Source: Candidatus Eiseniibacteriota bacterium
Lineage (GTDB): Bacteria > Arandabacterota > Arandabacteria > Arandabacterales > Arandabacteraceae
Assembly (NCBI GenBank): GCA_043810925.1
Contig: JBDRNT010000011.1
Span: 1 to 33,578, forward strand
Reading direction: 5' to 3'
Length of the DNA stretch: 33,578 nucleotides
Below are positions 1,962 through 25,260 of this stretch, piece after piece; positions within the stretch are counted from its first letter, which is position 1, and each line of letters begins with the position of its first letter. Made by a program: the position numbers and the translations under genes. Below the pieces are notes generated by a model that was not told where the DNA came from, ran no database searches, and worked only from the letters and a program-made list of their open reading frames with translations.

Positions 1962-4871
1962 TTACCTCGATACAACCACCTTGTTTACCAGAGACCCTCG
2001 AGTAGTCTCCAGTTTCACGAAATAAATCCCTGAGCTCACCCTGCCGCCATGCGTGTTGGTCCCGTCCCACTCATGCTTGTGGGCACCGGCATCCAGGTAC
2101 TTGTCGGTCAGGGTGCTTACGAGTTCGCCCTTGACGTTGTAGATCTTAAGGGCAACATGTCCCGATGTGGGGAGTGCGAAGTTAACGACTCCGCCGTTCA
2201 TCATGGGATTGGGCTTAACCAGCATCGCGAGATTCTGAGGGGCAACCGGTATGTCACCCGCCCCGGCCCTGCCGGCGGCGCAGATATCATCTATGTTCCG
2301 GGGCTCAATCATATGCTTGCTGTAGGAGAACATCATGACGCCTCGGACAAAGAGCACGCTCTCACTGAGTGTCGGGTCATAGTCATACCAGGAGTTATCA
2401 CCAACCGTGCAAGACGTGTCGGGCACCGTGTTACTGAGTTCCCACTCGCCGTAAGTGTTCTTCTCCGCGGTAACTGTGCCGTTGTTGACCTCAACCAGCA
2501 CGCCTTCATAGACTTCATTGCTGTCGATCATACCTGAGGTTACGGCGTAAGGTGCAGGGACCGTGTTGCCGGTCGAATGAACCGTGATGGCCTCCGGGAA
2601 AAACATGGCGATCTCGGTCTCCGTGTAGTACTCCCACACACCCCCCGATACCGTGACACTGTCGCCGCGCTCAAGCGTCACGCTACCCGTTCTTTCATAT
2701 ACCTTTACACCGTCGAAGTCAGGCTTATCCGCACCGCCGTAGGAGTTCTGGATGAAGAAGTAATACGGGTTGAGCTCACCCGGTGCGGCAGTGACAATAC
2801 CCGACACGTTGACCGGCTCGCCGGCATAGGTCGAGCTGTCGGCGGGCGGCGTGACGTTCTGGACCTGGTAGATCGTATTCATTCCCACACGGAAATCATA
2901 CGATCCCCCGGCCGGTTTGCGGGCGGAGAACCCATCCGCGTTCCAGGCCTCGACGTAGTAATCCACAACTGTCTGGTCAACTGCATACGGACCTATGTTC
3001 GCTGTATAGACGCTGTCCGGAGAGGTCATCACCGTGCTGTCCCAGTTGGCACCATTGTCAGTGCTGTGGAAGAGCTTGACTGAGAGTATACCGGCGTCAC
3101 TCAGTACCGTACCGCTCACCGTTATGACATCGGTCGTGGTCGGTACGTGGGGCGTATACCTGACCTCATAGATCCTGACCGGGCCCACGATGTCATCGTC
3201 ACTCCTGGGCTCAATCTTGTAAGTAGTGAACGAGTAGTAGCCGATGCCCTGGATCGAATCCAGTGAGTCTCCATCCTGAGGTACATAAGCATAATAAGCA
3301 GCATCATCGACGATGCACGAGCCTGAGCCGTCGTTTATCTCCCACTCGCCGTTTCCGAGGCTGTCTTCCGTGACGATTGCGCCTTCGATTCTTACCAGCA
3401 CACCCTCATAGCGCTCGGCAGTGGCCGAAGCCGTGTTAAGATCGCCGGTTGTGATAACGAAAGGATCGGGCAACCGGGCGCCGCTCTTGTGTTCCTGGTA
3501 GCAGTCGGTGAACATGTAGAGCTCCGTGACGTTGTAGTACTCACTTACAAAGCCGGAGATGGTAACACTGTCGCCCACCTCAGCCTGAACCGAATAGCTG
3601 GGATCGTATACGAAAATCCCCGACCACGGACCGCCATTGGGATCCTCGACCACAAAAATAGCATCGCTCAGGGGATAACCGAATCCCCCCCGGCTCACGG
3701 TCACGATGCCCTCGATGTTCTTAGCCTGGCCAAGAACGTAAGAAGAATCGTCAGCACCAAACACCTGCTGGATGCTGCTTATCGCCGTGGTACCGACCGA
3801 GTAGCCGTAGTCGTTGTTCGGGGCATCATCCGGTTCGTAGCCTGTCGCTCCCAGGTCATCGGTGATACGAACATAGAACCTGACCTGGTACTCGTCACCC
3901 TGCGCCGGCAGGTCGACTTCCCACTGGTTGGGTTCGGCCACAACCGGAGTCATGGCAACGCTGTCAAACGGTGTATCCAGGAAGTCGGGCGGAACCCGCA
4001 CGCTGTAAAAGCACTTGACCGCAGCGACCGTTCCGTCATCATCCTCCCCGTAGACGGTGATGGTGACCTGGTCGGTGTTTGACGGCACGCAAGGACTGTA
4101 CTGAAGACTGTAGCCATACGGGGGCAGGTTCGAAGTATTCTGGGCGCGCGGCGTAGGAGCCTGCTCTTCAAAATCGACCGAGCAGTCATCGGTGTCGGTA
4201 CCGACCGGAATCCGGCCCAGACTCACGCCTTCATCAGGATACCTTGGATAGGCATCATTGGTGCCGTTGACCCCCGCGCACGCGTCGGACGTGCAGCTTG
4301 ACTGGCGGTATTCGACCGCATCGATGAGATTGCTTCTCGTAGGCTCGTCATAAAGCCACAGGGCCTCGTAGCCGGTGAAGGTGCTCGGACACTTCATGCC
4401 ATAGTCACTCGTACCCGGGAAGAGCCTTATCTGATCGTCATAAGCATCCGGGTTCTGGCAGATCGTATCATCGACCCGCGGGTCCTGCGGTTCATAGACC
4501 TGGCTGCCATCATACATCTCGAGATCGGGCAGGAAACCGAATCTGGCCTCAAAGCCATCAACCTCAAGCACGTCCCTTGCTATTACGAAATAGCCGTAGG
4601 CGTCAATACCCTTGCCAGCCGGTATCTGATGATGATGCTCACCGCAAACCGCGTCATATTCGGTTCCCGAAAGCACCCATCCCGAGAGATCGATGTAACT
4701 GCCTGTTGTGTTATAGAGCTCGATAAACTCGGCATCGTCATAGTAGTCCGGGCTGTTGACCCAGATCTCGTTGATGACGACGTCACCGGCGCTTGCACCT
4801 AGCGCAACACCGGCTGAGAGACATACGACGAGCAAGGATAAGAATACCGCTGATGCACCACGACCGTACAT
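1962..4871 (-). CDS. Secreted multidomain protein: lamin-tail domain, Ig-like spacers, two double OB-fold (YhcR/ExeM-like) modules, FlgD-Ig/T9SS type A-like CTD
   Basis: Signal peptide. LTD motif VVINEI..N...EFIELYN...DLSGW. OB motifs GDSVT.SG.V.EYY..TE and YEGVLV...IEPR..DDI each occur twice. CTD reads KPNP...LKIYNVKGELV..L...WDGTN..G.RVSSGIYFVKL. Preceded by SD AAGGAGG. Confidence 0.85.
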   Translation of the reverse strand: MYGRGASAVFLSLLVVCLSAGVALGASAGDVVINEIWVNSPDYYDDAEFIELYNTTGSYIDLSGWVLSGTEYDAVCGEHHHQIPAGKGIDAYGYFVIARDVLEVDGFEARFGFLPDLEMYDGSQVYEPQDPRVDDTICQNPDAYDDQIRLFPGTSDYGMKCPSTFTGYEALWLYDEPTRSNLIDAVEYRQSSCTSDACAGVNGTNDAYPRYPDEGVSLGRIPVGTDTDDCSVDFEEQAPTPRAQNTSNLPPYGYSLQYSPCVPSNTDQVTITVYGEDDDGTVAAVKCFYSVRVPPDFLDTPFDSVAMTPVVAEPNQWEVDLPAQGDEYQVRFYVRITDDLGATGYEPDDAPNNDYGYSVGTTAISSIQQVFGADDSSYVLGQAKNIEGIVTVSRGGFGYPLSDAIFVVEDPNGGPWSGIFVYDPSYSVQAEVGDSVTISGFVSEYYNVTELYMFTDCYQEHKSGARLPDPFVITTGDLNTASATAERYEGVLVRIEGAIVTEDSLGNGEWEINDGSGSCIVDDAAYYAYVPQDGDSLDSIQGIGYYSFTTYKIEPRSDDDIVGPVRIYEVRYTPHVPTTTDVITVSGTVLSDAGILSVKLFHSTDNGANWDSTVMTSPDSVYTANIGPYAVDQTVVDYYVEAWNADGFSARKPAGGSYDFRVGMNTIYQVQNVTPPADSSTYAGEPVNVSGIVTAAPGELNPYYFFIQNSYGGADKPDFDGVKVYERTGSVTLERGDSVTVSGGVWEYYTETEIAMFFPEAITVHSTGNTVPAPYAVTSGMIDSNEVYEGVLVEVNNGTVTAEKNTYGEWELSNTVPDTSCTVGDNSWYDYDPTLSESVLFVRGVMMFSYSKHMIEPRNIDDICAAGRAGAGDIPVAPQNLAMLVKPNPMMNGGVVNFALPTSGHVALKIYNVKGELVSTLTDKYLDAGAHKHEWDGTNTHGGRVSSGIYFVKLETTRGSLVNKVVVSR

Positions 4872-4931
4872 TACACCCTCCTTATATAGGGGTAGTTAAC
4901 CCCAGTGTTTACCCTTTCTGGCTTTTGTTAA

Positions 4932-4960
4932 ACTATACCATATCCCCGATTCTATTTCAA
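4932..4960 (-). promoter_or_regulatory. Putative sigma70 promoter for the 4871 gene
   Basis: TTGAAA-17 bp-TATAGT with an extended -10 TGn. Confidence 0.55.
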
Positions 4961-4996
4961 CCAAAATCCAAGCCGTATCACAAGCGGGGCACAAGC

Positions 4997-5307
4997 GGGG
5001 TCAGATCTTGAAATTAAGCGTTTTCGACCACGGCAAATCCTGCTCAAGATTTGCCAGAATTGCCTGAACGATGCACCTGTAAGGGCCGGTGCCGAAATCC
5101 TTTGAAACGAATCTGACCATGAGGAGCAAGATTCACCAAGCCCATAAGAATTCGCTGGTGCGACGTTTTGCCCCGCAAGCGAATGCCTTTCTTGAGCAAG
5201 GCGGGGCGAAAGGAGCACCAGCGTTCGGCCCCCGAAATGGGCAACCTGAGCGCACGAAGGCTACTTGAGCAACTTACCTGAAACACCTAGTTTCAAGACC
5301 TGACCCC
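4997..5307. mobile_element. Non-coding MITE/REP-like element bounded by inverted repeats
   Basis: Left end GGGGTCAGATCTTGAAA (4997-5013) and right end TTTCAAGACCTGACCCC (5291-5307) match at 16/17 and extend imperfectly to ~27 bp. No credible ORF inside. Confidence 0.65.
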
Positions 5308-5318
5308 CGGGGTAGGGT

Positions 5319-7001
5319 TTAGTGAGTGAGGTTTTCCAGGGGTATGAACCTCGGCAGTGCGTCCGTCAGTTCAGGAGTTACGGCGCGATCGTCATCCCTC
5401 ACTAACCTTCCCTCGATTCGGGGGGCAAGCGGGGAGTGACGCCTTACATAATCGATCACGGCCTCCTTGACCTGGATATCAGTACGGTGGACATACTCGG
5501 GATCGATCTCGGTCAGGATCTGAAGCCCTATGTTGCCGGCCGCAATGAAGTCCGTTGTGGCCACGCGGTAGATGCGGTCGGGATCCCAGGGTTCACCACC
5601 GACAGCAAGTGCGACGAGCCTGTCGAAGTCCGGGCGGGCCCGGCTGTAGGCCGCCTCTATCCCGGAGACATAGGCACCCTGTCTCATCCCCTTCACCCGC
5701 CACTCAAGCACGTGCTTAAGATACGAGCCGGTCATCTCGAAATAGACAAGTGTGTTCTCAAAAGGCACCGCCCGGAAAACATCCCGGGGTGTTATCACAC
5801 CCATTGCCAGGTTGGATCTTATACCGCCCAGGTTGGTGAACGCCACATCGGCGTCCACCGCTTCCCTCATCGCATCGGTGATCATGTTGCCCAGCTGCGA
5901 CTCACCGACACCGACCCTCGTGATATCAATCAGCGCCCTGCCTATCGGTTCATCCATTCCCACTTCAGCCGTATCGACCCATTCTTCGATAAACTCGGCC
6001 ACCTCGGCATCCGGCCAGTATTCATCCTCAAAGAGGCTTACTATCGAACCCCCGGATTCCGCAAGGTTATAGCCGACGATCTTCTTGGACCCGGGATCCA
6101 CCAGGATCTCGTACACCCCGACCCCGGTACCTCTGCCGTATGTCTGAAGGCAGATCGTATGGGTCAACGGGTCTTCCCAGCCTTGCTCCAAGCCCACATG
6201 TATGTGACCGCCGACCAGGAGATCGATACCGGGAACGTGATGAACGAGTTCCATGGCGTTCATTCCGTACCTGATTCTCTGCTCGACCCCGGTCTCGATC
6301 ATCTCCTTGTAGGCCGAGCGCACATCGTAGGGAATCCCGAGATGGGATATTACGAATATCAGATCAACCCGGCCCTTAAGCTCGGCGATGTATTTTTCGG
6401 TGACCGGCTTGACCTCAAGGAACTCCACGCGGCTCACCGTCTCCGGCAGCGAGTAGTACTCGGTCTCCTCGGTTATAAGACCGATGATGCCGATCCTCAC
6501 TCCTGCCACTTCCTTTATTATATAGGGTGTGGCCGGCGGGGGCAGACTACCGGTCTGTCTGTCAAGCAGGTTGGCGGCTACAACCGGGAACTCGGCCATC
6601 TCGATGAGTTTGAAGGCATTTTCGAGCCCCGCGTCGAACTCGTGGTTACCCGGCGCCCAGGCATCGTAACCCAGCCGGTTCATGAACTCGATCACGACCT
6701 CGCCGCCCTTGTAGTTCCCGACAGGGGACCCCTGCCAGATATCACCGGTGTCGAATAGGAGGAAGCCGTTTCCCTCCTTCTCGGCCTTCGCTCGCTGCGT
6801 CTTCACAAGCGTTGCCAATGATGCCCCCCCACCCAGCTGCGGCGGGAATTCCTCGTCCATGAAGGTCGCACCCTGCCTGTCGATGCCCCCGTGGACGTCG
6901 TTGGTATGCATAATCGTTATGTGTATGGGCTCGGCCCCGAACCCCACCGAGGCCAGAGCGGCAGTCAAGCACAGAGCCAGAATCATTACGTGTCTCATCA
7001 T
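5319..7001 (-). CDS. Periplasmic/secreted 5'-nucleotidase / 2',3'-cyclic phosphodiesterase (UshA/CpdB family)
   Basis: Signal peptide. Calcineurin-like motifs HTNDVHG, DTGD, GNHEFD, SHLG and GGHIH. C-terminal 5'-nucleotidase domain (ESQLGNMITDAMR..N.GGIRS..PFEN..YRVATTDF). Confidence 0.93.
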   Translation of the reverse strand: MMRHVMILALCLTAALASVGFGAEPIHITIMHTNDVHGGIDRQGATFMDEEFPPQLGGGASLATLVKTQRAKAEKEGNGFLLFDTGDIWQGSPVGNYKGGEVVIEFMNRLGYDAWAPGNHEFDAGLENAFKLIEMAEFPVVAANLLDRQTGSLPPPATPYIIKEVAGVRIGIIGLITEETEYYSLPETVSRVEFLEVKPVTEKYIAELKGRVDLIFVISHLGIPYDVRSAYKEMIETGVEQRIRYGMNAMELVHHVPGIDLLVGGHIHVGLEQGWEDPLTHTICLQTYGRGTGVGVYEILVDPGSKKIVGYNLAESGGSIVSLFEDEYWPDAEVAEFIEEWVDTAEVGMDEPIGRALIDITRVGVGESQLGNMITDAMREAVDADVAFTNLGGIRSNLAMGVITPRDVFRAVPFENTLVYFEMTGSYLKHVLEWRVKGMRQGAYVSGIEAAYSRARPDFDRLVALAVGGEPWDPDRIYRVATTDFIAAGNIGLQILTEIDPEYVHRTDIQVKEAVIDYVRRHSPLAPRIEGRLVRDDDRAVTPELTDALPRFIPLENLTH

Positions 7002-7011
7002 GCTACCTCGT

Positions 7012-8319
7012 TCAGAGCCCCCTCGTGATCGATATCATGCCGCTGAAGGTCGTCTCTTCAACCAGATCCGCGAAGCCGCGCGACTCTGCACAGAAGAGGC
7101 CGTCATCAAAGAGGTCGAAGTGTCTGTATTCTCTCCACCCAACCCTGACAGATGCCTCTATACCCAGTCCGTATGTCGCGAAGCCACTTCCTATCGTGAA
7201 GGCCGTCTCACTGATCTCGTCATCGACGGGGCAACCCTTGTAGATAAAGCCAAAGCGTAGCGGCTGCTGATTGTAGAATACATGCTCCACGCCGATGTGC
7301 CACTCGTATATGTCCTCCAAACCGGCATCAACAAGAGCCTCATTACCGGCATCACTCCAGGTGGTGCACTTTACATCAGCCTCGATTACCGTCATGAGTT
7401 CGTTCCTCGGCCGGAATGTCACACCCAGCGCGTAGGAAGCCGGATACTTGACCTTGAACTCCCCACCCTCATCAGTAGCCCTGGGCAGGAACTCAAGCAG
7501 TCCCCCGACAGAACTCGTGCTGTAGTCGCCCGTAAGCTCACAGCCGGTCACCACCGATGCACCCATCTCAACCCTCTTGTTGATCTCGTAAGTCCCCCCT
7601 ACTCTCACCCTTATCCCATCTATATTGGATGACGTAAAGGTATCGGAGGTTTCCGTCCGGGGTTCGTCCCAGCACTGCACTTTGATCGTATCCACATCCG
7701 AGAGCCGGCCCGTAAGATCGAAATCGCCGAAGAGGTAATCAATACCGGCACCGATCGAGAACCCGTCTCCCACCGACGCGCCCATCCCAAAGGCCAGCGA
7801 GCTGATGCTTCCGCTGTCTTCGATAAATGCCTGTGCGATCACTTTGTCGGTCGGGACCGATGAAGTGCTCCTGTCCCGTACCTCCTCGTAGAAATCATAT
7901 GTGAAATCATAGACAGGTGCATAGGCACATCCAAACGATATCCCGAGGCCCTGGGGAACCACTCCCGAGCATAAGCCTATCGCACCACGGTGGTAGAGGT
8001 TGGAGTTTCTCGAGTACGTCGTGTACCCTAAGAGAGCGTCGAAGCTGTCATGCGCCGGGAACGACCAGTCCTCCTCGATCGAGTAGAAACGGTAGGTGCC
8101 CCCAACCATGGGGCGCCCGATCTTGCTCAGCAAAGCGGGGTTCTGAAGCACCGCAAACGGTGTCTCCTCACAGAGGAGCGCGACCTCTCCCATACCGGCA
8201 CATCTGCCCGATCCCGGAAAGACCTCCGACCCGAGACCGAGGTCGAGAAAGGTGTAACCCCACGAACACGTCGCCAACGCAAGAATCAGCAGCACACCTC
8301 CTGTTCCACCTCTCCTCAT
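7012..8319 (-). CDS. Outer-membrane beta-barrel, FadL/OmpP1/PorV superfamily
   Basis: Signal peptide. N-terminal hatch-like motif SGRCAGMGE...AVLQNPALL. Amphipathic beta-strands and the KYPASYALGV motif. Confidence 0.7.
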   Translation of the reverse strand: MRRGGTGGVLLILALATCSWGYTFLDLGLGSEVFPGSGRCAGMGEVALLCEETPFAVLQNPALLSKIGRPMVGGTYRFYSIEEDWSFPAHDSFDALLGYTTYSRNSNLYHRGAIGLCSGVVPQGLGISFGCAYAPVYDFTYDFYEEVRDRSTSSVPTDKVIAQAFIEDSGSISSLAFGMGASVGDGFSIGAGIDYLFGDFDLTGRLSDVDTIKVQCWDEPRTETSDTFTSSNIDGIRVRVGGTYEINKRVEMGASVVTGCELTGDYSTSSVGGLLEFLPRATDEGGEFKVKYPASYALGVTFRPRNELMTVIEADVKCTTWSDAGNEALVDAGLEDIYEWHIGVEHVFYNQQPLRFGFIYKGCPVDDEISETAFTIGSGFATYGLGIEASVRVGWREYRHFDLFDDGLFCAESRGFADLVEETTFSGMISITRGL

Positions 8320-8335
8320 AGCTTAGTACCCCCTT

Positions 8336-10777: not shown

Positions 10778-10790
10778 TTGTCGCGCCTTC

Positions 10791-11660
10791 CTAGAATACC
10801 GCTCTCAGGGACATGTGGTGTGTGCCCGGCAGAACCGTATGACTTGAGTACGAGTAGTCTACGGCTAATGGCTCAACACCGACCGTGAAGCCCCCCGTCA
10901 GCGAGTTGGGTTCGGTCTGGAAGCCGAACCTCATATCCAGAAATTCCGTCACATTAAACTGCATCCCCATGTGTATCTCGACGTCTTCCCCTCTTACACT
11001 TCTGATATCCAGCTCGGTAATTACACCGTAGTAGGGTTTGTATGCGATACCAGCGGTCAACCACTGAGGAAGCGGTTCCCTGTCGACCTTCCCCAGCGAC
11101 GGCTCATTAACATTCTTAAGAAAGAACCCCAGCATGGTCCGATCCCTTAAGATTGCGAGCATGCCGATGTCGATCCCGAAGGTCGTCTGGCTCCCGAGAT
11201 CCATCGTACCCGTTGATCCGAAATCAAGTGAGTAGATGTTGAGGCCGTAGCCGACATGAAGCGACGAGTGGATGTCCTTCATAAGTACCATCCCGTGCGC
11301 CACACTGAATGTCGACTCGCCCATGAGATCCTGACCGCCGAATTCGACACCAAAGCTGCGGTAGCTGACCGCGACGCCGTGCGACGGCCTGACAGGCATG
11401 CTCGCAGCAAGAAAGGTCAGGGATTCGAAGCTCTGAGAATTCGGCTTCAAGTACGACGCGCACACACTTCGGCCCGACACTCCTACCAGGCAAGCGGGGT
11501 TGTAGAATATCGCGGTGGCATCATCCGCACTGGCTATCCATGCTCCCGCCATACCCCTTGCCTTGCTGCTCACATCCACGGAATCGAAGACATAGGCAGT
11601 CGCCATACCTGCAATAAGAAACACCAAAACGGGCCAGAGAATTAGTCTAATGACTCGCAC
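10791..11660 (-). CDS. PorV/PorQ/PorP-like outer-membrane beta-barrel (T9SS-like accessory)
   Basis: Signal peptide. Motif SKARGMAGAWIASADDATAIFYNPACL. C-terminus DYSYSSHTVLPGTHHMSLRAVF with terminal Phe. 289 aa. Confidence 0.75.
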   Translation of the reverse strand: MRVIRLILWPVLVFLIAGMATAYVFDSVDVSSKARGMAGAWIASADDATAIFYNPACLVGVSGRSVCASYLKPNSQSFESLTFLAASMPVRPSHGVAVSYRSFGVEFGGQDLMGESTFSVAHGMVLMKDIHSSLHVGYGLNIYSLDFGSTGTMDLGSQTTFGIDIGMLAILRDRTMLGFFLKNVNEPSLGKVDREPLPQWLTAGIAYKPYYGVITELDIRSVRGEDVEIHMGMQFNVTEFLDMRFGFQTEPNSLTGGFTVGVEPLAVDYSYSSHTVLPGTHHMSLRAVF

Positions 11661-11672
11661 CTGAGTCTCCTC

Positions 11673-14597
11673 CTACTTTAGCTCGATACCCACGACGATC
11701 GGTACGCTTTCAGTCGTCCTTCTGCCGGTAACTGACTCCGTGACCTCAAGGAAACAGATGTAAAGACCCGGGGCGACCATCCTGCCCTCATCGTCTTTAC
11801 CATCCCATCTGATCTCACGGTCCCCGAGGCTCGTACCACTATAGAGCGTTGCCACACTTCTGCCGGCCGCGTCAAACAGCCTCAGGACGACATCGCTCAA
11901 TGATTCTCCACCAAACCGTATACTGAATCCATCCTCTCCGCAAGACGGACAGAACACGCGCGCATCGACATCGAGTCTTGCCTCATCGGGAAATGCACCT
12001 TCGATTATCTCGATGTCACTGTCATACCTGGGGACGAGCTCGTAGCTCTCGAGGAATGGACGTGTGTAGTCGTACTGAAGAACGACACCTTTGACTCTCG
12101 CATACATTCCCACTTTGAAGCGGGTGAAGTCTATCGGCAGGTAGTTCTGGTAAACCTGTATGCCGCCTGTCCCATCGTCAATGAAGAAGTCGAAGTCGGA
12201 GGTGCTAATGATCGCTCCCTCCGTCTGGACAAGTCTCCCCTCATTTATCTCACGTCCGACATCACCGGTCTTCAGGATCACGGGATCCGGTTCCGGATAG
12301 CCACGCGAAAGAATTGTGACCCGGGGACTGGGTGACATGTAAATCTCGGTGGTACTACCCGCGGTACCCACGTATTCCGTTACATCTCCGCTGACCGTGA
12401 CGAAATCACCAATGACCGGAGCAGGGTTGGGTACGTCATAGGAAAACACATTGACCCCACATCCGTCCAGGCCCTGGACGTAAAGTGAGGAGTACTCCTC
12501 CTGGAACACACCTGGCGGTACGGTGATAAAACCCATCGTGAACACGGCAGTGTCCCTCACGGGTGAGAATCCGTACTCGTCGTATGCCTGTATCGTGCAC
12601 ACTCTCATGGCGGCGCTGGATGTGATCGATAGGGTGACCACCGTATCTTCCATGGCCTGATTGAACTTGCTTTTCAGGTTCGCAACTTCAAGCCTCGCAG
12701 CACCGGGCAGGACATCATCGAACAGAAGAAGCACCTTCTCCCCCGATGCCGAAGGATAGGCCTTTACGGCAGCCGGACAGCCCTCGTGCCGCCCACACAA
12801 CTGGAAATTCCCCGGATCGGCGAGCGCCGACACAGCCATGCCTTCGCTGAAAAAGACCTCCACAATGTCTGTCGCGTGGGACATCACCTTGTCAACAACC
12901 GGGGCCCTGTAATCAAAGATGTTCTCCGCACCGGGAGTTGGAACCGCCGTCAGCGAAGCCGGCGGATTCTCCGGTATATGGTCCAGGCCGGTCGCCAGTG
13001 CGTAGCCTGCAGGCGGGATCTGGGGAAAAGCGCTCGCCATAAAATCATCACACATATCCGTGGGGCATGCTACTCCATCCTTATACTCGATATAGTCTAC
13101 AAGATCGCTCAGCGAGGCGTCCCGCCAGAACGAGATCACCTCGTATGTTTCGGCACCGCCGCACAGCCCCCCATCGCCCCCCACTCTCCCGAGCGGGCTT
13201 ATGGCCGCTTCAATCGCCCCATCATAATCGAACCGCTCACCGAAGCCGGCAGATGATTCGACCAGGACAAGATATTCATCCGGAGCGAGCGTGTCGGCCG
13301 GCCCGAACACGTGACGCACATCCGTGTCGCATATGGAAACAGCCCGCTGTTCACAAATGGCATAACCCTCGAGATAGGCTGTCGAGCTGCCCGTGTTGTG
13401 AAGCTCGATAAACGCATTACTCCCCGAGGTCGTCCCGTCATCCGGAAAGACCTCGGTGATATAAACACCAGGAATGGGGTAGACTGCCTTAAGCGCGGGC
13501 AGAAGGCTGATGTCCTTAAATGTTGTCCCATCGACCGAGGTTCTCACCGTTACCTGCGAGGATACAAGACCTGCGGGCGGGGCCACGTTTTTAAGAGTAA
13601 CCGAACCGTATGAAACATCCCCGTCCCAGACAGCGCATGATTGCACTGCTACGCCGCTTGCCGTTACATCATACGTGGCACCCGACAACCCCGGGCCTGA
13701 GAGCACAACATTCCCGGCCCCACCTTCCCAGCTCCACCCGTCTGCGAGCGGGAGGTCGACGGAAAACGCCGTAATGGTATCCTGCTCATTACCCGCAAGC
13801 GTCACGACGAGATCGAATGACGGCAGATCGTTATCGACCGACGAAGGCTCCAGAACCACGATTCCGCTTCCACTTCCCACGGCGAGCACGTCCTCATATC
13901 TCGATCGCGGCCAGACGGTATAGTCGGACAGGTACGGGTACTTCCGGTCGTTCTGGACGACAACGCCGATCACGGTAAATGGGCCGTCCGGTTCCGGGGT
14001 GCCGCCGATATCTGTGTCTCCGTCTATCCTGAGGGTGAAACTGCCGGTCGCATCCTCCACGGTGAGGTCCCGATTGGTACCCGGACTCGTCGGCCAGTCG
14101 CCGCCTGTAATTCCAACATTTTGGACTCTCACGAGGGCACCCTCGTAAGGTTCAAACGGCGGTGCGGAAGTCGCAGTAACCTCACTCGCGGTGAGCAGAA
14201 CGGGCTCAGGAACGGTGCCCTTTCCAACAACCTTTATGTCTTCGAGACGACCGACATTGAGGCGTATCGTACCCGCGTTGGGACTGCTGAAACTCAAACT
14301 GACCGCCCCGGTCACGACCACGCTGTCACCAAGTCTTAACCTGATGCCTTTAAGAGTGCGGGTGTACAGATTGATCCCGCCGGTCTTATCCTGGATGTAA
14401 GCATCAAGTGAACTCAACTCGCCGCTGAAGATACCGCTCCCGGTCGTTACGACTCCCGTGACTGTAACGGTCGTGCCGTCCAGTTCGGAATCTCCCCCGC
14501 TGTCTATCTCTTTGGCCTCTTCTATCGTGATCACCGCACCGTTCGCGGTGAACGCAACAAGCAAGAGCACAAGCCAGGCACCACAAACACGCATCAC
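11673..14597 (-). CDS. Secreted protein: double OB module, Ig-like region, lamin-tail domain, Ig-like domain, double OB module, variant FlgD-like CTD
   Basis: Signal peptide. GTTVTVTGVVT..YIQD.TGGI..LGDSVVVTG and YEGALVRV..VWPR. LTD VYITEVFPD..FIELHN. Second OB pair ends LVPRYDSDI. CTD reads FCPSC...LRLFDAAGRSVATL...WDGKD..G....PGLY. Confidence 0.82.
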   Translation of the reverse strand: MMRVCGAWLVLLLVAFTANGAVITIEEAKEIDSGGDSELDGTTVTVTGVVTTGSGIFSGELSSLDAYIQDKTGGINLYTRTLKGIRLRLGDSVVVTGAVSLSFSSPNAGTIRLNVGRLEDIKVVGKGTVPEPVLLTASEVTATSAPPFEPYEGALVRVQNVGITGGDWPTSPGTNRDLTVEDATGSFTLRIDGDTDIGGTPEPDGPFTVIGVVVQNDRKYPYLSDYTVWPRSRYEDVLAVGSGSGIVVLEPSSVDNDLPSFDLVVTLAGNEQDTITAFSVDLPLADGWSWEGGAGNVVLSGPGLSGATYDVTASGVAVQSCAVWDGDVSYGSVTLKNVAPPAGLVSSQVTVRTSVDGTTFKDISLLPALKAVYPIPGVYITEVFPDDGTTSGSNAFIELHNTGSSTAYLEGYAICEQRAVSICDTDVRHVFGPADTLAPDEYLVLVESSAGFGERFDYDGAIEAAISPLGRVGGDGGLCGGAETYEVISFWRDASLSDLVDYIEYKDGVACPTDMCDDFMASAFPQIPPAGYALATGLDHIPENPPASLTAVPTPGAENIFDYRAPVVDKVMSHATDIVEVFFSEGMAVSALADPGNFQLCGRHEGCPAAVKAYPSASGEKVLLLFDDVLPGAARLEVANLKSKFNQAMEDTVVTLSITSSAAMRVCTIQAYDEYGFSPVRDTAVFTMGFITVPPGVFQEEYSSLYVQGLDGCGVNVFSYDVPNPAPVIGDFVTVSGDVTEYVGTAGSTTEIYMSPSPRVTILSRGYPEPDPVILKTGDVGREINEGRLVQTEGAIISTSDFDFFIDDGTGGIQVYQNYLPIDFTRFKVGMYARVKGVVLQYDYTRPFLESYELVPRYDSDIEIIEGAFPDEARLDVDARVFCPSCGEDGFSIRFGGESLSDVVLRLFDAAGRSVATLYSGTSLGDREIRWDGKDDEGRMVAPGLYICFLEVTESVTGRRTTESVPIVVGIELK

Positions 14598-15664
14598 TTG
14601 AGTCTTCTCCCTATTACGATCGGTACCGTTTCTTCTGTCTTATCACCGGTCACAGGATCCGTTGCGGTCGCGACCACGTGATAAAGTCCCATCGGCAGGC
14701 GCTCCATGAGCTCATTTCGCCCGTCCCACTCGAAATCAGCTTCGCCGCATGCGGTTATATGGTCTTCAAGCGTTGCCACACATCTGCCCGAGACATCGAA
14801 GATCCTCAATTTCGCCCGCCCGCCGTTCGGGCCGTTGAATCTGATCTTCACTTTGTTGTAGGGCCGGGGACACTCCGGACAGAAAATGTTGGCTCTATCA
14901 CCGTTGATGTCGGTTATCTCAAGCAGAACTCGCGCTGTCACGGTATCGGGAGTACAGCGTGGTCCCACGACATCGTCGTACGGCGGAGCGGGACTTCTGG
15001 GCCAGATGCTGTAATCACTCAAGTAGGGAGGCGAGGGATCGTACTGCGAGACGACTCCACGCGCGGTCACCTTATCCCCGAAGAAGAGCTCCTGCCAACC
15101 TGGGCTCGTGGTAAACGTCCCGGCCCGATCATGGATCTCTATCTGGCCTGTCCCATCATCGACGAATATCGATTCAAGTCCATCCTTACCTACGACCCTG
15201 CCCGTAACCTGTACAAACATCCCTTCATGCTCTTCGCGGCCCACCGCACCGGTCGACATAAGTGTGGGCTCGGGAAATATGTCCGAATTCCGGACGATGA
15301 TTTCACCCGTAAGCTCGGCGATCTCCGTGGTCGCTCCCGCGGTCCCGGCATACTCAAGAACGTTGCCGGTCACGGTTATCGTATCGCCCAGAGACAGCCC
15401 GGGAATGGGATCAAACGAGAACACATTGATCCCGCAGGAGTCACTACCGAGACCCCGTATGAAGATCGATGTGAAGTCAGGTACAAAGAACCCCGGCGGG
15501 ACGGTCACAATACCTGTGACGGTGACCCTGCTGCCGGTCAGAGGCGAGAATCCCGATGCATCATAGGCCTGTACTTCACAGATCGTTGTCGCCCGGGCGG
15601 GTTGGAATATCAAGATCACCAGAAATAGCGACAAAAAAACGAGTCCTGCCTGATGACTCCTCAC
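14594..15664 (-). CDS. Secreted protein: one double OB module plus variant FlgD-like CTD (paralogous to the C-terminal third of the 11673-14597 protein)
   Basis: Signal peptide. ICEVQAYDASGFSP..G..TVPPGFF matches VCTIQAYDEYGFSP..G.ITVPPGVF in the neighbour. CTD reads FCPEC...WDGRN...VPIVIGRRLK. GTG start after AAGGAG; ATGA overlap with the downstream gene. Confidence 0.82.
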   Translation of the reverse strand: MRSHQAGLVFLSLFLVILIFQPARATTICEVQAYDASGFSPLTGSRVTVTGIVTVPPGFFVPDFTSIFIRGLGSDSCGINVFSFDPIPGLSLGDTITVTGNVLEYAGTAGATTEIAELTGEIIVRNSDIFPEPTLMSTGAVGREEHEGMFVQVTGRVVGKDGLESIFVDDGTGQIEIHDRAGTFTTSPGWQELFFGDKVTARGVVSQYDPSPPYLSDYSIWPRSPAPPYDDVVGPRCTPDTVTARVLLEITDINGDRANIFCPECPRPYNKVKIRFNGPNGGRAKLRIFDVSGRCVATLEDHITACGEADFEWDGRNELMERLPMGLYHVVATATDPVTGDKTEETVPIVIGRRLK

Positions 15665-15689
15665 GCGACATGCTCCTTCGTTTTGTCAG

Positions 15690-15718
15690 ATGCTACTATA
15701 AACGATGGTACAAGTCAA
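15690..15718 (-). promoter_or_regulatory. Putative internal sigma70 promoter for the 15664-5319 sub-operon
   Basis: TTGACT-17 bp-TAGCAT in the only 50-bp gap of the operon. Confidence 0.45.
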
Positions 15719-17052
15719 CTACTGGTGCCAAGACCCAGCTTCTGTTGAAGCCGCTTGAGCCGTCCGATTTCTGCGTTACCCTTTGCCGCCGCCCTGTCAA
15801 GCGCCTCCCCAATATCAGCATCACCCCTGAGCACCGCTTCGACCGCCCGCTCCGCAAGATATCTCCTGCCGGCATACCAGCCCGCAATCTTGGGCTCGAA
15901 GCTTGCGTACTCGAGTTGATTGAATGCATCTCTTAAGCCCGGGAATTCCTCAAACCTGGCCATCAGCGTATCCGTTTCAAAAGCGCTCCACCTGACCGGC
16001 GCGTAGAAAGTACCGGCGGCCCAGCGCGCCGTCTGGTCCGTGTCGGTGAACCACTTGATGAACTCCCACGCTGCTTCCTGTTCCCGCCTGGTTGACTCTG
16101 AGAAGATCACGACATTGGTACCCGCAATCGTCACACCGTCGATCTTGCCCGCCGGCAGGGGTGCAACGCCGAGCTCAAAATCGTATTTGCCCTGTACGAA
16201 CGCAAGCGAGACCGTTGAGCCTTCCATCATTCCGACCTTCTCGGCAAGGAAGTCGTTCTGATATTCATAGCCCGCCGCAATGAAGCCGACGCTGTCGGCA
16301 AGCAGTTTCTTCATAAAAGCGAGTGCCTCGACGCCCTCGCGCCGGTTAAAGATGACTTCCTGCGTCGCAGGGTCAAGGAAGCGGCCGCCGTTTTGAAGCA
16401 GGAGGTTCCCGAACATCCAGACGTTGACCTGCCCCGCCGTTCCCCAGATCTCCGGGAACCCGTCACCGTCATCATCCCGGGTGATCTTTCTGGCGAATCC
16501 TATGTAGTCGTCCCAGGTGCGGGGCGGTGTGTCGCGGTCAAGACCCGACCGCTCGAAAAGGTCCTTGTTGTAGAAAAGGGTTCTCACGCTCTTGTTAAAT
16601 GGAAATGACCATATCACACCGTCCCACTGGTTGTTCCTGATGAAGACCGGCAGTATGTCCGCCAGACTCTCTTCACTCAGTCCGTTGGGTCCCCTGACGA
16701 AGTCTTCGATCGGCACTATGCTGCCGCTTATGATCAGTTCCACCGTCCAGTTTTCGTAGGCCTGGGCCATCACGGGCGGCTTTCCGGCCGCAACCGCGGC
16801 CATTATCTTCTGGCTGAGTGCGTTGTACTGCCCCATCGACACAGAGACAATCTCTATGTCCGGATGTGTGGCGTTAAACTCATCTATCAGACTGGTAAGC
16901 ACCCTGCCCAGTGGTCCACCCATCCCATGCCAGAACGTTACCTTGACGACGCCGCTGTCATCCGTGCTTCGCGAGCACGTCACCAGCATGAGAAGGCAAG
17001 CGACGAGGATTACCCTCGCCGACACGCTATCCCTTAATCCCGCTCTTAGCAT
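15715..17052 (-). CDS. CUT1 ABC transporter substrate-binding lipoprotein (UgpB-like)
   Basis: Lipobox-like LVTC. Motifs VTFWHGMGG, FPFNKS..LFYNKDLF, PPRTWDD, AAWEFIKW and WAAGTFYAP. The true start may be the GTG near 17025. Confidence 0.9.
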   Translation of the reverse strand: MLRAGLRDSVSARVILVACLLMLVTCSRSTDDSGVVKVTFWHGMGGPLGRVLTSLIDEFNATHPDIEIVSVSMGQYNALSQKIMAAVAAGKPPVMAQAYENWTVELIISGSIVPIEDFVRGPNGLSEESLADILPVFIRNNQWDGVIWSFPFNKSVRTLFYNKDLFERSGLDRDTPPRTWDDYIGFARKITRDDDGDGFPEIWGTAGQVNVWMFGNLLLQNGGRFLDPATQEVIFNRREGVEALAFMKKLLADSVGFIAAGYEYQNDFLAEKVGMMEGSTVSLAFVQGKYDFELGVAPLPAGKIDGVTIAGTNVVIFSESTRREQEAAWEFIKWFTDTDQTARWAAGTFYAPVRWSAFETDTLMARFEEFPGLRDAFNQLEYASFEPKIAGWYAGRRYLAERAVEAVLRGDADIGEALDRAAAKGNAEIGRLKRLQQKLGLGTSS

Positions 17053-17863
17053 AGCTTTCGATCACCTGTTTCTGAGCGATGAAGTATATCACCACAACCG
17101 GCGCGACACAGAAGGTCGCAGCCGCCATCATCAATCCGTACTCCGTCCCCTGTTCCTGGGCAAAATAGGAGAGCCCGACCTGGATCGGACGCAGTTTGTC
17201 GCTGTTTGTCATGATCAACGGCCAGATGAAGCTGTTCCACGAACCAAGCAGCGCGAAGAGGCCTATCGTGATCAGCGTGGGCTTGGAGAGCGGAACCAGG
17301 ACCCTCCACAGGAAGCCCATCCGGCTGCACCCGTCAATCAGGGCGGCGTCGTAGTAGTCGTCCGGAATCGTCCGGAACTGCTGCCTGAGGAGAAAGATGC
17401 TGAAAATCTGTGCAAGCCACGGAACGATCTGTGCCATGTAGGTGTCAACCCATCCCAGCCTGGACATTATTATGAAAGACGGCACGAGATAGACGGCCTG
17501 AGGCACTATCATCATGCTGAGGAAGAATATGAACAGCGTCTCCCGGCCTGGGAAGTCGAACTTGGCAAAAGCGTAGGCGGCAAGACACGAGGTTATCACC
17601 ACCCCGCCCACGATGCATATGGCTATGAAGATCGTATTGAGGAAGTACCTTGGAAACGGGACTTCGCTCCAGGCCTCGATGTAGTTGTCCAGGATTACCT
17701 GGTTCGGTACCCACGTGGGTCTCAGGTGAGTAAGATCGGGCGGAATGAAGGTCTCCTGCGGAGACTTGAGCGAGGTCGATACCATCCAGATAAACGGCAT
17801 GACCATACTGATCGCCCCCACGATGAGAATAACGTGGATCGGGATCTTCCTCAATATCCGCAC
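17027..17863 (-). CDS. CUT1 ABC transporter permease (MalG/UgpE-like)
   Basis: MPFIWMVSTSLK, EAA loop DAALIDGCS, WNSFIWPLI. Confidence 0.93.
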   Translation of the reverse strand: MRILRKIPIHVILIVGAISMVMPFIWMVSTSLKSPQETFIPPDLTHLRPTWVPNQVILDNYIEAWSEVPFPRYFLNTIFIAICIVGGVVITSCLAAYAFAKFDFPGRETLFIFFLSMMIVPQAVYLVPSFIIMSRLGWVDTYMAQIVPWLAQIFSIFLLRQQFRTIPDDYYDAALIDGCSRMGFLWRVLVPLSKPTLITIGLFALLGSWNSFIWPLIMTNSDKLRPIQVGLSYFAQEQGTEYGLMMAAATFCVAPVVVIYFIAQKQVIESYAKSGIKG

Positions 17864-17876
17864 CGAGCAGGTCCTC

Positions 17877-18854
17877 CTAGTAGTAATGCACCTTCTTTTC
17901 GATCAGTCTCCGCTGTACGAGCGTGAGCGTAAGCACGATGGCAAAAAGCACCAGCGCAACGCAACTGGCGTAACCCATGTCTCCGCCCGATTCAAATGCT
18001 TTCTCAAAAATGTAATAGACAAGCACCTTGGTTGTGCCGAGCGGCCCGCCTACGGGTGATCCGGTCATCAGATATACGAGCGTAAAGACCTGGAAGGATA
18101 CAATGGTGGTCATGATCACGACATAGAAGGTCGTAGGCGAGATCAGCGGCCAGGTTATCTTCCAGAACGTCTGGGTACGCCCCGCACCGTCTATCTTGGC
18201 CGCTTCGTAGTACTCGTTGGGTATGTTCTGGAGCCCCGCAAGGAATATCACGATGTTATACCCTATCCCCCTCCACAGGTTGGTTATCGTAATCGCAACC
18301 AGCGCAAGGCTGGGGCCGCCCATCCAGGAGGGCAGAGACAGTCCTACTCGTCCTGCCAGAAGCGAGAAGATCCCCTCCGGTTCCTCAAGCCACATCAGCG
18401 GGTTAAGCCCGATCAGGCTTACAAAGGAATTCAGGAGACCCAGCCTGGGGTGGTAGATCCATTTCCACACGATCGCCACCGCTACGAGCGACGTTACCAC
18501 GGGAAGGAAATAGATGGTCCTGTATGCCCCCAGGGCCTTGATCTTCTGGTTTAAGAGGATGGCAATGAAAAGCGACAGGAAAAGACTCACCGGGACCGTT
18601 CCGATTACGAAATAGGAGGTGTTGACAAGCGAATTCCAGAACTCACTGTCGGAGAGTAGCATCCAGTACTGGGAAAGGCCGGCGAAGCCGACGATCTTCC
18701 CCATCATCACGTAGTAGAAACTGACTGTAAATGCGGCGATGATCGGGAGCACCCGGAAAACAACTATGATCGTCCCGGCAGGAGCTATATAGGCAAGGGC
18801 ACGCAGTAAGTTCCCCAATCGCTTGGTCCTTGCCTGGCTTCCGGGACTACTCAA
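17877..18854 (-). CDS. CUT1 ABC transporter permease (MalF/UgpA-like)
   Basis: RTIYFLPVVTS, FLAGLQNIPNEYYEAAKIDGA and FWKITWPLISP. Probable TTG start at 18854 after AAGGAG (the ORF track gives 18908). Confidence 0.92.
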   Translation of the reverse strand: MSSPGSQARTKRLGNLLRALAYIAPAGTIIVVFRVLPIIAAFTVSFYYVMMGKIVGFAGLSQYWMLLSDSEFWNSLVNTSYFVIGTVPVSLFLSLFIAILLNQKIKALGAYRTIYFLPVVTSLVAVAIVWKWIYHPRLGLLNSFVSLIGLNPLMWLEEPEGIFSLLAGRVGLSLPSWMGGPSLALVAITITNLWRGIGYNIVIFLAGLQNIPNEYYEAAKIDGAGRTQTFWKITWPLISPTTFYVVIMTTIVSFQVFTLVYLMTGSPVGGPLGTTKVLVYYIFEKAFESGGDMGYASCVALVLFAIVLTLTLVQRRLIEKKVHYY

Positions 18855-18876
18855 CGGGGCCTTGCTCCTTGGCAAA

Positions 18877-20130
18877 TCATTTCCAGGTCCACACAGTGAA
18901 AGTCTCACCGTCTGTGGTGACGCTCACATGTCCATCCTGCGCCTCATCGGTCCTGCCGGCGTTTCTGTAGGCCCTGTCTGAGACGAAGTAATCCACATTA
19001 TACTCTCTGAGCAGGTTTATCACGGACTGGTCAAACACACCAGGGTTTTCCTCAAGCGAGTTGGGAATCAGCCCGACACGCGGCGTCGCGACTGCAAGGA
19101 ACTCCTCAGAGCTTGCGTCATTATTGGCGTGGTGGCCTACCTTGAGAACATCACAGTCCAGCTCGCTGCCGTAGGTCTTGAGCATCCGCTGCTCGACAAA
19201 TGCCTCAGCATCAGCGTTCAGCATGATATCAACCTGGCCGTAGGACACCTTGATCACGGGTGAATCACAGTTGGTCGGGTCACCGTCCTGCTCCGGCGCG
19301 AAGAGGCGGCCGGCCCCTGCGCTAAAGACCTTTACGCGCACTCCATGCTCCTCATCCCACCTGAGAAAGTCGGTATTCGCGTTTGTCTGCCCCTCAATCA
19401 GGCTGTCCACAGGCACACCCGCTTCCGCCAGCTTGGCGCCGAGAGTCTCAAGCACGCGTGAGTACGGCATGGCCGGAGTCAGGAGTGTCGTATTGGTGTA
19501 GAACCCGAGAAGATTCAGGAAACCACCGTAGTGGTCCCCATGATTGTGCGTTGCGATCATGTAGTCTATGCCCGCGGGCCGCGGGACGCCACGGGTGTCA
19601 AGGAAGCCGAACACGTCGTTAGAATGAGGAAAGTCCCCCAGGTTGCCATAGCCGGCATCCACGATCACGTTTGTGCCGCCCGGAAACTCAAGAAAATGGC
19701 AGTCTCCCCAGCCCACGTCCACCATGGTGTACACCAGGTTCTCCGTCTCGGGGGTTTCCTCAACAAGGAAGATCATCTCATCACCGGTTGATGTGTTGCC
19801 CGCACGGTCGGTAGCCACTATCCTCATACGGTACTCGGTCGGACCGACATCTATAAGGTCAACATAATGGCTCCTGCCGCCATCGGAGACATGATAGCCA
19901 TGGTGATCATAGACACCTGTGCGTGTGCCGTAGAGAAGTACGCAAGTGGCGTCTTCGTTGGTTGTCCAGGACACCCGCCCATTGCTCTCGCTGGCCGATG
20001 GAACCCACGGCGCAGTAGTATCAGGTTCGAAAACAGAGGTGTCCTTTTCGGCACACCCGCCAAGTATGAAGCATGCAACGATGACCAGGAGCCCCACGAA
20101 CCTCAATCTCGCATCAAACCGCATCACCAA
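18877..20130 (-). CDS. Lipoprotein: FN3-like domain plus ComEC/Rec2-type metallo-beta-lactamase-fold hydrolase
   Basis: Lipobox LGGC. FN3-like VSWTTNE...YG...H.V.L. MBL motifs DVGWGD, VDAG, THNHGDHYGG, NADAE and LKVGHHA. No ComEC membrane domain. Confidence 0.85.
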   Translation of the reverse strand: MVMRFDARLRFVGLLVIVACFILGGCAEKDTSVFEPDTTAPWVPSASESNGRVSWTTNEDATCVLLYGTRTGVYDHHGYHVSDGGRSHYVDLIDVGPTEYRMRIVATDRAGNTSTGDEMIFLVEETPETENLVYTMVDVGWGDCHFLEFPGGTNVIVDAGYGNLGDFPHSNDVFGFLDTRGVPRPAGIDYMIATHNHGDHYGGFLNLLGFYTNTTLLTPAMPYSRVLETLGAKLAEAGVPVDSLIEGQTNANTDFLRWDEEHGVRVKVFSAGAGRLFAPEQDGDPTNCDSPVIKVSYGQVDIMLNADAEAFVEQRMLKTYGSELDCDVLKVGHHANNDASSEEFLAVATPRVGLIPNSLEENPGVFDQSVINLLREYNVDYFVSDRAYRNAGRTDEAQDGHVSVTTDGETFTVWTWK

Positions 20131-20188: not shown

Positions 20189-20221
20189 TTGAAAAGTTGG
20201 ATTCCTGATGAAGGAGGAAAC

Positions 20222-22921: not shown

Positions 22922-22977
22922 ACGAGCCGGCGTGGCAATCCGGCCTGAAGGGGTCGTTGTGAGGCTCGGGAGGAGCC

Positions 22978-23715: not shown

Positions 23716-23732
23716 CCCCCATCGGAGCCCTC

Positions 23733-23760
23733 GGGGTCAGATCTTGAAATCGAGCGTTTT
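23733..23760 (+). repeat. Solo copy of the GGGGTCAG repeat end
   Basis: GGGGTCAGATCTTGAAATCGAGCGTTTT is 26/28 identical to 4997-5024. Confidence 0.8.
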
Positions 23761-23868
23761 CCGCGGTGGTTGACGAGGTGCTTCAAGTGGATTTTGCTTC
23801 CATTTCGCGGTGTCCCGGCATACAATCAGTGAGATTGAGATGACCACAGTGTCGAGACAAGGGGTATC

Positions 23869-24354: not shown

Positions 24355-24406
24355 CCGCAAGACCGACCGGAGTTCCACCACCCGGGTCGCTTACAGGAGA
24401 CGGAAG

Positions 24407-25255: not shown

Positions 25256-25260
25256 TCCCT

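Follow-up and report, generated by a model that had tools for sequence, protein, structure and literature searches.

A conserved envelope gene block of a Candidatus Eiseniibacteriota genome, its linkage to purine catabolism and its probable role in nucleic-acid feeding

Gene content of the locus

We analyzed a 33,578-nucleotide stretch of DNA from Candidatus Eiseniibacteriota bacterium (contig JBDRNT010000011.1 of assembly GCA_043810925.1), referred to here as the window, and within it an eleven-gene block (positions 1962 to 20130) that a first-pass annotation had proposed to be a locus for capturing and using extracellular nucleic acid, an interpretation that our results support in part. The window is the whole of contig C11 of the 3.85-Mb host genome (G000), which is 91.7% complete; C, G and L numbers denote host-genome contigs, genomes, and loci or stretches, respectively. 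All eleven open reading frames (ORFs) that had been listed are present on the minus strand, and we named them A to K, the reading order being K, J, I, H, G, F, E, D, C, B, A. The ten genes from 20130 to 5319 are indeed packed with gaps of at most 50 bp (-32, 13, -26, 50, -4, 12, 13, 16 and 10 bp), and a further 447 bp separate this run from gene A, which is probably a transcription unit of its own. As described in that annotation, nine of the products carry N-terminal hydrophobic signals and the other two are permeases of the CUT1 type. Scans for promoters (10 sites, 9.8 expected) and terminators (20, with 14.2 ± 3.7 expected) were uninformative.

K (18877 to 20130) encodes a 417-residue lipoprotein with a hydrolase domain of the ComEC/Pce-type metallo-beta-lactamase (MBL) fold, a candidate nuclease or phosphodiesterase. 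It is followed by two CUT1 permeases of an ATP-binding cassette (ABC) importer, the UgpA-like J (17877 to 18908), which scores under the UgpA cut-off, and the UgpE-like I (17027 to 17863), and by H (15715 to 17052), a lipoprotein substrate-binding protein (SBP) whose closest solved relative is the dinucleotide binder 7C0F. G (14594 to 15664; 356 residues) is secreted and combines two OB folds with an Ig tail resembling the C-terminal domain (CTD) of type IX secretion system (T9SS) cargo, and F (11673 to 14597; 974 residues) is a secreted protein with a DUF5689-like OB-pair, a lamin-tail domain (LTD), another OB-pair and a CTD-like tail. E (10791 to 11660) encodes a small barrel of the PorV/PorQ family, a putative shuttle or anchor for F and G. 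D (8336 to 10777; 813 residues) combines two ComEA-fold HhH modules with a barrel of about 24 strands and is a candidate entry pore. C (7012 to 8319) encodes a FadL-family barrel nearest to BamG-type accessory barrels, B (5319 to 7001; 560 residues) a secreted 5'-nucleotidase of the UshA/CD73 type, and A (1962 to 4871; 969 residues) a secreted protein with an LTD, two OB-pairs and a type A T9SS tail. Our searches upheld the domain calls made earlier (MBL, SBP_bac_1/8, BPD_transp_1 twice, OB/DUF5689/LTD/FlgD-Ig, HHH_3 twice, Toluene_X, and Metallophos with 5_nucleotid_C), with a weak match for the PorV family.

Conservation of the block

Barrel D was found in all 15 other genomes of the host's order, at 63-93% identity, and over parts of its length in three distant genomes at 34-40%; overall, 23 of the 41 genomes searched were matched, several of them weakly. 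Close relatives of the barrel that carry a group name are titled Ca. Eisenbacteria (L060, 71%; L101, 75%), but for most the title is only 'bacterium'. Gene order, which the first-pass annotation had named as a check on its proposal, is kept in 11 loci of the order as far as their contigs reach. A scan of genome contigs yielded 223 barrel-related stretches, of which 79 loci were kept and 78 counted after L101 was dropped for its cut barrel. The kept loci bear the titles Eisenbacteria, Zixibacteria, Krumholzibacteriia, Gemmatimonadota, Calditrichaeota, KSB1, Ignavibacteria and 'Fibrobacteraceae'. Among loci with room on the contig, we observed the PorV-like E near barrel D in 71 of 72, CTD-bearing cargo in 66 of 67, the FadL-like C in 59 of 66, the 5'-nucleotidase B in 53 of 60, the SBP H in 25 of 46 and an MBL protein in 24 of 39 (one being the ComEC-like protein of L114). 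The arrangement is not due to chance, and a five-gene core of cargo, PorV-like barrel, HhH barrel, FadL/BamG-like barrel and 5'-nucleotidase recurs in several phyla related to the Fibrobacteres-Chlorobi-Bacteroidetes (FCB) group. Depending on the lineage, K either precedes the ABC genes or sits between C and B, and thus it remains linked to the module despite rearrangement.

A gene of 410-450 residues after B in eight loci was considered as a NupC transporter and rejected, since it reads as a Clp-type AAA protein. Fusions of E and D were likewise rejected, the long ORFs reflecting upstream in-frame starts; the one long fusion that was checked, P0181, is a 1251-residue HhH barrel with an N-terminal TPR region. 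The side-clade locus L109 (10001-12557) has a barrel gene broken into parts of 630 and 202 residues, and its cargo is fragmented as well.

OB-fold cargo and the accessory barrels E and C

The cargo had been credited with OB folds of a nucleic-acid-associated kind, and structure matches bear this out for two of them in G: in its AlphaFold2 model (pLDDT 82.9), both resemble tRNA-synthetase anticodon domains, MCM, RPA and the p204 HIN domain (Z 11-12; p204 HIN, 11.0). The Ig tail of G matches the end of PorU, its CTD region (Z 10.5). F matches DUF5689 at 28.7 bits (cut-off 28.6), and A is similar to ExeM at its N-terminus. With the type A T9SS tail model TIGR04183, A scores 37.7 bits (cut-off 23) and G 14.4, and F gives no match; the type B model TIGR04131 matches neither F nor G. 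These two share a distinct tail, neither type A nor type B, that is rare in the host genome (5 hits versus 155 type-A-like ones). No catalytic Pfam domain was detected in F, G or A, nor in the cargo directly before E elsewhere in a scan of 34 proteins from other loci; the catalytic hits of that scan fell on other neighbors, namely an MBL-OB fusion (L061, 20583-22073) and peptidases of L063 and L065. The same LTD and OB-pair modules precede an Endonuclease I domain and a T9SS tail in two other proteins of the host genome, and Endonuclease I is present in 13 of the 15 other genomes of the order.

The host genome holds 155 ORFs with a type-A-like tail, 44 ORFs ending in the motif [ST]WGx[IVL]KxxY, 19 PorV-family hits and one SprA, and thus a large T9SS-like secretome outside Bacteroidota. 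Other secreted OB-pair proteins (G000 contig C13, 3282-5297; L031, 474-2498) have an N-terminus that appears PHP-like from its motifs, and such a protein adjoins the locus just downstream in G001.

Single-sequence searches of the PDB with E and C returned nothing, and family profiles were needed. E scores 48 bits against the PorV_fam model, under its cut-off of 90, and does not match the PorP/SprF model TIGR03519; its family profile matches PorV (6h3i_F) with an E-value of 7.5e-8. Cargo bearing a CTD beside its cognate PorP/SprF shuttle is the pattern described for type B T9SS in the consulted portions of two reports (PMC12618676; PMC9143113), and because this pattern is known, it is fair to suppose that F and G are displayed on E.

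C matches Toluene_X over the cut-off and the BamG model NF053685 at 70 bits (cut-off 250), and its profile scores 71.7 bits against the FadL-like chain of a Bacteroides BAM complex (9hiv_F) and 48.6 or less against TbuX or TodX. Thus, the earlier assignment of C as a second outer-membrane passage is weakened: the protein is nearer to a BAM accessory barrel than to FadL transporters, which makes the role of a scaffold likelier than that of another pore. The locus contains no BamA. BamG is described, in the portion of the report consulted, as docking on a large barrel and anchoring a surface lipoprotein (PMC12611786). By analogy, it is attractive to suppose that C may hold the lipoprotein K beside D, since a lipobox-like Cys is present in 18 of 26 homologues of K and six loci have K as the gene immediately following C.

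The HhH barrel D

The AlphaFold2 model of D (pLDDT 85.3) comprises two helical modules and, by our own count, 24 long strands. The first HhH module superposes on ComEA (Z 11.9, rmsd 1.2, 64 residues aligned, 34% identity), which places it in the (HhH)2 fold, and D scores 38 bits against the comE model (cut-off 152). From their place before strand 1, the modules are predicted to be periplasmic. The best fold matches of the barrel are usher pores (Z 14.9, rmsd 5.0, 373 residues aligned, 10% identity); in the model, the likeness is one of barrel size only (8-10% identity), and no usher Pfam match was found in the domain scan. There is no solved homologue of the barrel among the structure matches listed, which does not in itself prove a new fold, and its look-alikes in a structure atlas are only unnamed HhH clusters.

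A paralogous module lies on contig C15 of the host genome (704-6239; L129) and encodes LTD cargo with the same rare tail, a PorV-like barrel, a metallophosphoesterase and a 645-residue barrel with one HhH module. This paralogous barrel occurs in all 15 other genomes of the order, with weak matches in G016, G017, G019 and G021.

Hydrolases K and B and binding protein H

The annotation had assigned an MBL hydrolase and a UshA/CpdB-type nucleotidase, and the metal motifs of both are intact. The HxHxDH motif of K is kept in 27 of 29 aligned rows, and its best PDB relatives are ComEC MBL domains (E-value 5e-18). K corresponds to the MBL part alone, as the Competence channel domain PF03772 is not found in it; the true ComEC is encoded on contig C68. 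Both domains of B, Metallophos and 5_nucleotid_C, score over the Pfam cut-off, its catalytic GNH(E/D)xD motif is present in 56 of 57 rows and its base-stacking PFxN motif in 54 of 57, and its nearest solved structures are 5'-nucleotidases. The earlier proposal of a full pathway is weaker for the polymer: beyond the candidate K, the locus has no polymer-cleaving nuclease of a known family, the Endonuclease I genes lying elsewhere in the genome.

H is closest to the 7C0F series (151 bits, versus 133 for E. coli UgpB), and its family profile gives the same order (7C0F, 209 bits; UgpB, 186; the glycerophosphocholine (GPC)-binding 6R1B, 127). According to the supplement of the relevant study, as far as it was consulted, 7C0F binds uridylyl-3'-5'-phosphoguanosine (U3G) and has a pocket volume of 1291, compared with 315-320 for UgpB (PMC12718374). 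In the same study, a Trp clamp marks UgpB, and Tyr/Ser phosphate ligands are common to the clade (PMC12718374). The phosphate ligands Y76, S155, S279 and Y350 are kept in 27-29 of the 29 SBPs from the loci; of the two Trp residues that clamp glycerol in UgpB, at E. coli positions 192 and 195 as we mapped them from Phaeobacter residues, the first is present in 25 of 29 and the second in none. H scores 145 bits against the UgpB model (cut-off 411). By eye, H shares the motifs PFNKS, GTN and FEPxxxxW..R with 7C0F, but the overall similarity is moderate and the Q274 and Y246 positions differ. From these sequence comparisons, H-I-J appears to be a CUT1 ABC importer for a phosphodiester, with H most like a dinucleotide binder. 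There is no ATPase gene in the locus, and a search for UgpC located one UgpC/MalK-type ATPase, on contig C151. A metagenome search anchored on H gave 80 loci, which we counted by eye: 30 have module genes, 8 have permeases only (on short contigs) and 7 are too short.

In low-GC lineages, an H-like SBP without permeases occurs directly after a PorV-family barrel or before cargo with three OB-pairs and a small barrel (L161, L168, L170-L176, L217 and L218; L177 and L209-L212).

Linkage to nucleoside uptake and anaerobic purine catabolism

The locus is larger than had been flagged: in two distant lineages, it belongs to a supercluster that has the block at its distal end. Upstream of it in the window, on the same strand, is a CUT2 ABC system of one ATPase and two permeases (26147 to 29602), and the same system lies upstream, again on the block's strand, in five of six regions of the order (G001, G002, G005, G006 and G013; the contig of G007 ends). 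It is also found 0.3-2.3 kb from K in all five more distant genomes (G041-G045), whose D is about 44-45% identical. The NCBIfam hits of this system are to 'putative B6 ABC' models and fall under the cut-off; we read it as a putative Nup/Bmp-type nucleoside importer from the Bmp-type system that stands beside adenine deaminase.

Farther upstream in the order, Ade, YgeY, YqeB, YqeC, SsnA, dihydropyrimidinase and PreA are found over cut-off. In the second lineage, three of the five genomes (G041-G043) have Bmp, adenine deaminase, carbamate kinase, carbamoyltransferase-like genes, XdhB, YqeB and MocA upstream, and G045 has Bmp, carbamate kinase and YqeC (the contig of G044 ends). One contig of G005 runs from the paralogous module of PorV-like barrel, phosphoesterase and HhH barrel through PreT/PreA, dihydropyrimidinase, SsnA, xanthine dehydrogenase (Xdh) parts, YgeY, carbamate kinase, adenine deaminase and Bmp, after which come the Nup ABC and finally K...B. 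The paralogous module also heads the purine cluster in G002, G007, G008, G013 and G014, but not in the distant G021. In the host genome, pieces of the supercluster are on contigs C15, C166 and C78 and in the window, with PreTA, HyuA, SsnA and carbamate kinase mapping to other contigs; C166 and C78 each carry part of one gene, and the other contig joins are deduced from synteny. For deoxyribose, DeoC is present in 16 and DeoB in 14 of 18 genomes.

A secreted tricorn-type protease (window 29792-33100) separates Bmp from the Nup ATPase in G002, G005 and G006, and in the second lineage the two Nup permease genes flank one for a MurJ flippase (L182, 1649-3301; L237, L238 and L240).

Other features of the window

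Next to A, on the minus strand, is a gene for a small secreted protein ending in WGSIKALYR (1145 to 1975), whose true start is probably the Met at residue 42; it adjoins A only inside the host's order. Between K and the Nup ABC, an insert on the plus strand (20189-26140) encodes an M16 peptidase, a lipoprotein, two GNATs, a cupin and a PTS IIA protein; its content varies across the order, and it is absent in the second lineage. A 139-bp segment (928-1066) recurs without any change at the beginning of contig C114, and an IS4 remnant at the contig end (33228-33578) has copies on other contigs.

Discussion

The genes, their synteny and their motifs point to a role in nutrition. We regard feeding on nucleic acids or oligonucleotides as probable, and we assign a probability of roughly 0.6 to the fuller model in which the block makes up the envelope half of a supercluster for nucleic-acid foraging. 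According to this foraging model, T9SS-like secretion would place the non-catalytic F, G and A on the cell surface, with the cognate E holding F and G. There they would tether DNA or RNA, which would be cut by secreted Endonuclease I encoded elsewhere and possibly by K. In the least certain step, oligonucleotides may cross the outer membrane via the 24-strand D, with the HhH modules trapping or gating them and C serving as a BamG-like scaffold that may anchor K; we consider the chances even that D is a conduit for oligonucleotides. Periplasmic B, as its motifs suggest, would then remove phosphate. Judging from nearest structures and synteny, leftover dinucleotides would be taken up via H-I-J with a shared MalK-type ATPase, and nucleosides via the Bmp/Nup ABC. 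Finally, the bases would pass to the linked adenine deaminase, Xdh and YgeY pathway, and deoxyribose to DeoB/DeoC.

The first-pass annotation had argued for feeding rather than competence from the absence of SusC/TonB, type IV pilus, ComEC and DprA genes. That absence is true of the window, where no TonB receptor family was found in the 23 ORFs, but it is misleading, as elsewhere the host genome encodes SprA, DprA, ComEC, two PilT and ten TonB receptors (PF00593), and a small ComEA beside pilB/pilT/pilC. Thus, the distinction stands by way of the linkage to nucleoside uptake and purine catabolism, and not by absence. The competence genes elsewhere cut both ways. They already give the host a canonical route for transformation, and the linkage of the locus is to catabolism.

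Several observations weigh against the foraging model. The OB folds of G also match YgiW, which does not bind nucleic acid (Z 10.1), and 7C0F outscores UgpB by a modest margin. Of the 80 H-anchored loci, 35 are without module or permeases (11 with only a PorV-family neighbor, 24 with neither), and the H-like genes of G039 and G040 are beside no nuclease. The annotation had also invoked the binding of dsDNA by ComEA HhH domains, which cannot be transferred to D, because its hairpins lack the ComEA glycine motif and module 1 is acidic: in 94 aligned sequences, the hairpins read LP[IL]S.E.A, PG[IM]D, a near-invariant QNVSPVDA and PGLS.WGY, the GIG-type hairpins of the host's small ComEA are not seen, the modules are fused to a barrel, and the median net charge is -3 for module 1 and a mildly basic +3 for module 2. 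Moreover, the paralogous module of LTD cargo, PorV-like barrel and HhH barrel occurs without a nucleotidase in all 15 other genomes of the order and more widely, and therefore the role of the HhH barrel may be more general. The seven loci without C and B form one barrel clade where placed in a FastTree tree, from which L109 with its broken barrel was left out. Related loci are not independent, and our hidden Markov models were built from the same loci. The conserved block is shared by the housekeeping-type RarA, tricorn and MurJ, so some of the linkage may be inherited order. DeoB and DeoC also occur in two class relatives without the locus. Lastly, PurF is over cut-off in 16 of 18 host genomes, and purine auxotrophy as a driver was rejected on that ground.

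Among other explanations, one keeps the feeding role but makes D, E and C a platform for the export, assembly or display of the OB/LTD cargo and the lipoprotein hydrolase, with products entering by porins or TonB receptors. The best folds for D being 24-strand secretion pores of ushers, the known service of PorV-like and BamG-like proteins as accessories of protein-handling machines, the constancy of the cargo-E-D unit above all others and the non-canonical HhH motif would all fit such a platform. We nevertheless consider it rather unlikely, since the usher match reflects barrel size only (rmsd of about 5), no POTRA or usher chaperone-binding domains are seen, the host genome has its own SprA translocon, and a ComEA-fold domain at 34% identity is unneeded for export. 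That D could instead be a competence accessory, a DNA channel that needs no pilus and brings its own ComEA ratchet to feed ComEC for transformation, is suggested by its HhH fold, by the resemblance of K to the ComEC MBL domain and by the ComEC and DprA genes of the host. In addition, DUF5689 and HhH proteins are reported as essential for Riemerella transformation in the part of that study consulted (PMC8459023), and the ddb loci discussed below are related to the Riemerella system. We find this competence role very unlikely: the genome already has its small ComEA with pilB/pilT/pilC, the locus combines a nucleotidase and a small-molecule ABC importer with purine catabolism rather than with comEC, dprA or recA, and a ComEC-like neighbor appears only in side-clade L114. 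It is also highly improbable that the locus scavenges glycerophosphodiesters, phosphocholine or other envelope phosphoesters from necromass, with nucleic acids incidental. While H, I and J are best to the NCBIfam Ugp models, though under cut-off, K weakly matches the phosphorylcholine esterase Pce/CbpE (E-value 0.003) and FadL-family barrels carry hydrophobic compounds, the second clamp Trp of UgpB is absent from every SBP, the GPC-binding 6R1B scores far lower, no UgpQ-type glycerophosphodiester phosphodiesterase was recognized among the clustered neighbors from their sequences, and the OB, HhH, nucleotidase and purine genes would be left unexplained.

We found no published description of the module in the literature searched, which left most subscription journals and the ddb supplement outside, in agreement with the first-pass view that the arrangement is not a described system. 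The comparisons that follow are with sources consulted in part. The ddbABCDEF locus of Bacteroides thetaiotaomicron (10.1101/2025.03.18.642099) follows a similar logic for DNA, pairing a surface binder that bears DUF5689 and HIN-like OB folds with a transporter in the outer membrane, secreted hydrolases and downstream purine deamination. In contrast, our locus has no TonB-dependent DdbC, its barrel being an unrelated HhH-tipped 24-strand protein; its receptors have T9SS-like tails and are not lipoproteins; it contains no EEP or NUC nuclease; and it includes PorV- and BamG-like barrels, a 5'-nucleotidase and two ABC importers. Because the defining TonB-dependent transporter is missing, it is not a ddb member. 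For the same reason, the label of a locus like a polysaccharide utilization locus holds as an analogy but not in the strict sense, which would need a SusC/DdbC transporter. The 'DNA-degradation loci' of Ca. Izemoplasmatales likewise bring together LTD and nucleic-acid-binding proteins, phosphohydrolases and an ABC importer, and these sediment DNA degraders have clusters of purine deaminase and xanthine dehydrogenase; however, those hosts are without an outer-membrane module and their loci hold recognizable nucleases (PMC8289736).

In type B T9SS, CTD cargo is encoded directly before a small PorV-clan barrel (PMC12618676; PMC9143113), and in the BamG-BamH system a FadL-family barrel stands beside a large barrel and a lipoprotein (PMC12611786), as here; but F, G, E and C are under the family cut-offs, the host is outside Bacteroidota, and D is neither SprA nor BamA. 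SsnA, HyuA and YgeY are described as enzymes of the 2,8-dioxopurine pathway (10.1101/2025.04.24.650524), and with carbamate kinase, carbamoyltransferase, Xdh parts and YqeB/YqeC they lie upstream of the block in relatives. Here, however, the pathway is joined to an envelope capture module, matches to the YgeW and YgfK models were not found in the linked stretch, and part of the gene set is on other contigs in the host genome. What is new in our analysis is a putative outer-membrane machine without a published description, together with an SBP nearest to a dinucleotide binder, the link to a purine supercluster, and LTD/OB modules fused to Endonuclease I.

Extracellular DNA is described as a major source of phosphorus, nitrogen and carbon in sediments with few known degraders, in the part of the report consulted (PMC8289736). 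The excerpts consulted of two further reports describe one Eisenbacteria genome with several secreted nucleases (PMC11495043) and leave open the outer-membrane entry of DNA in P. gingivalis (PMC11532111). Against this background, it is probable that the uncultured host studied here draws nutrition from DNA or RNA in its environment, by an entry route without a published description. We also advance, tentatively and as a doubtful possibility, that D represents a new class of outer-membrane channel for oligonucleotides, independent of TonB and of pili, which T9SS-displayed OB receptors would feed and a dinucleotide ABC importer would drain. In this reading, D and its paralogue bracket about 55 kb that would encode every stage between extracellular nucleic acid and the anaerobic breakdown of purines and pyrimidines. 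The locus opens to direct testing, in standard laboratory hosts, a new type of outer-membrane channel, T9SS-like surface display outside Bacteroidota and the physiological context of dinucleotide-binding ABC proteins, and it names candidate DNA degraders among uncultured phyla, with D as a marker gene. If the channel reading of D is true, uncultured FCB-related lineages would be specialist recyclers of nucleic acids in anoxic habitats.

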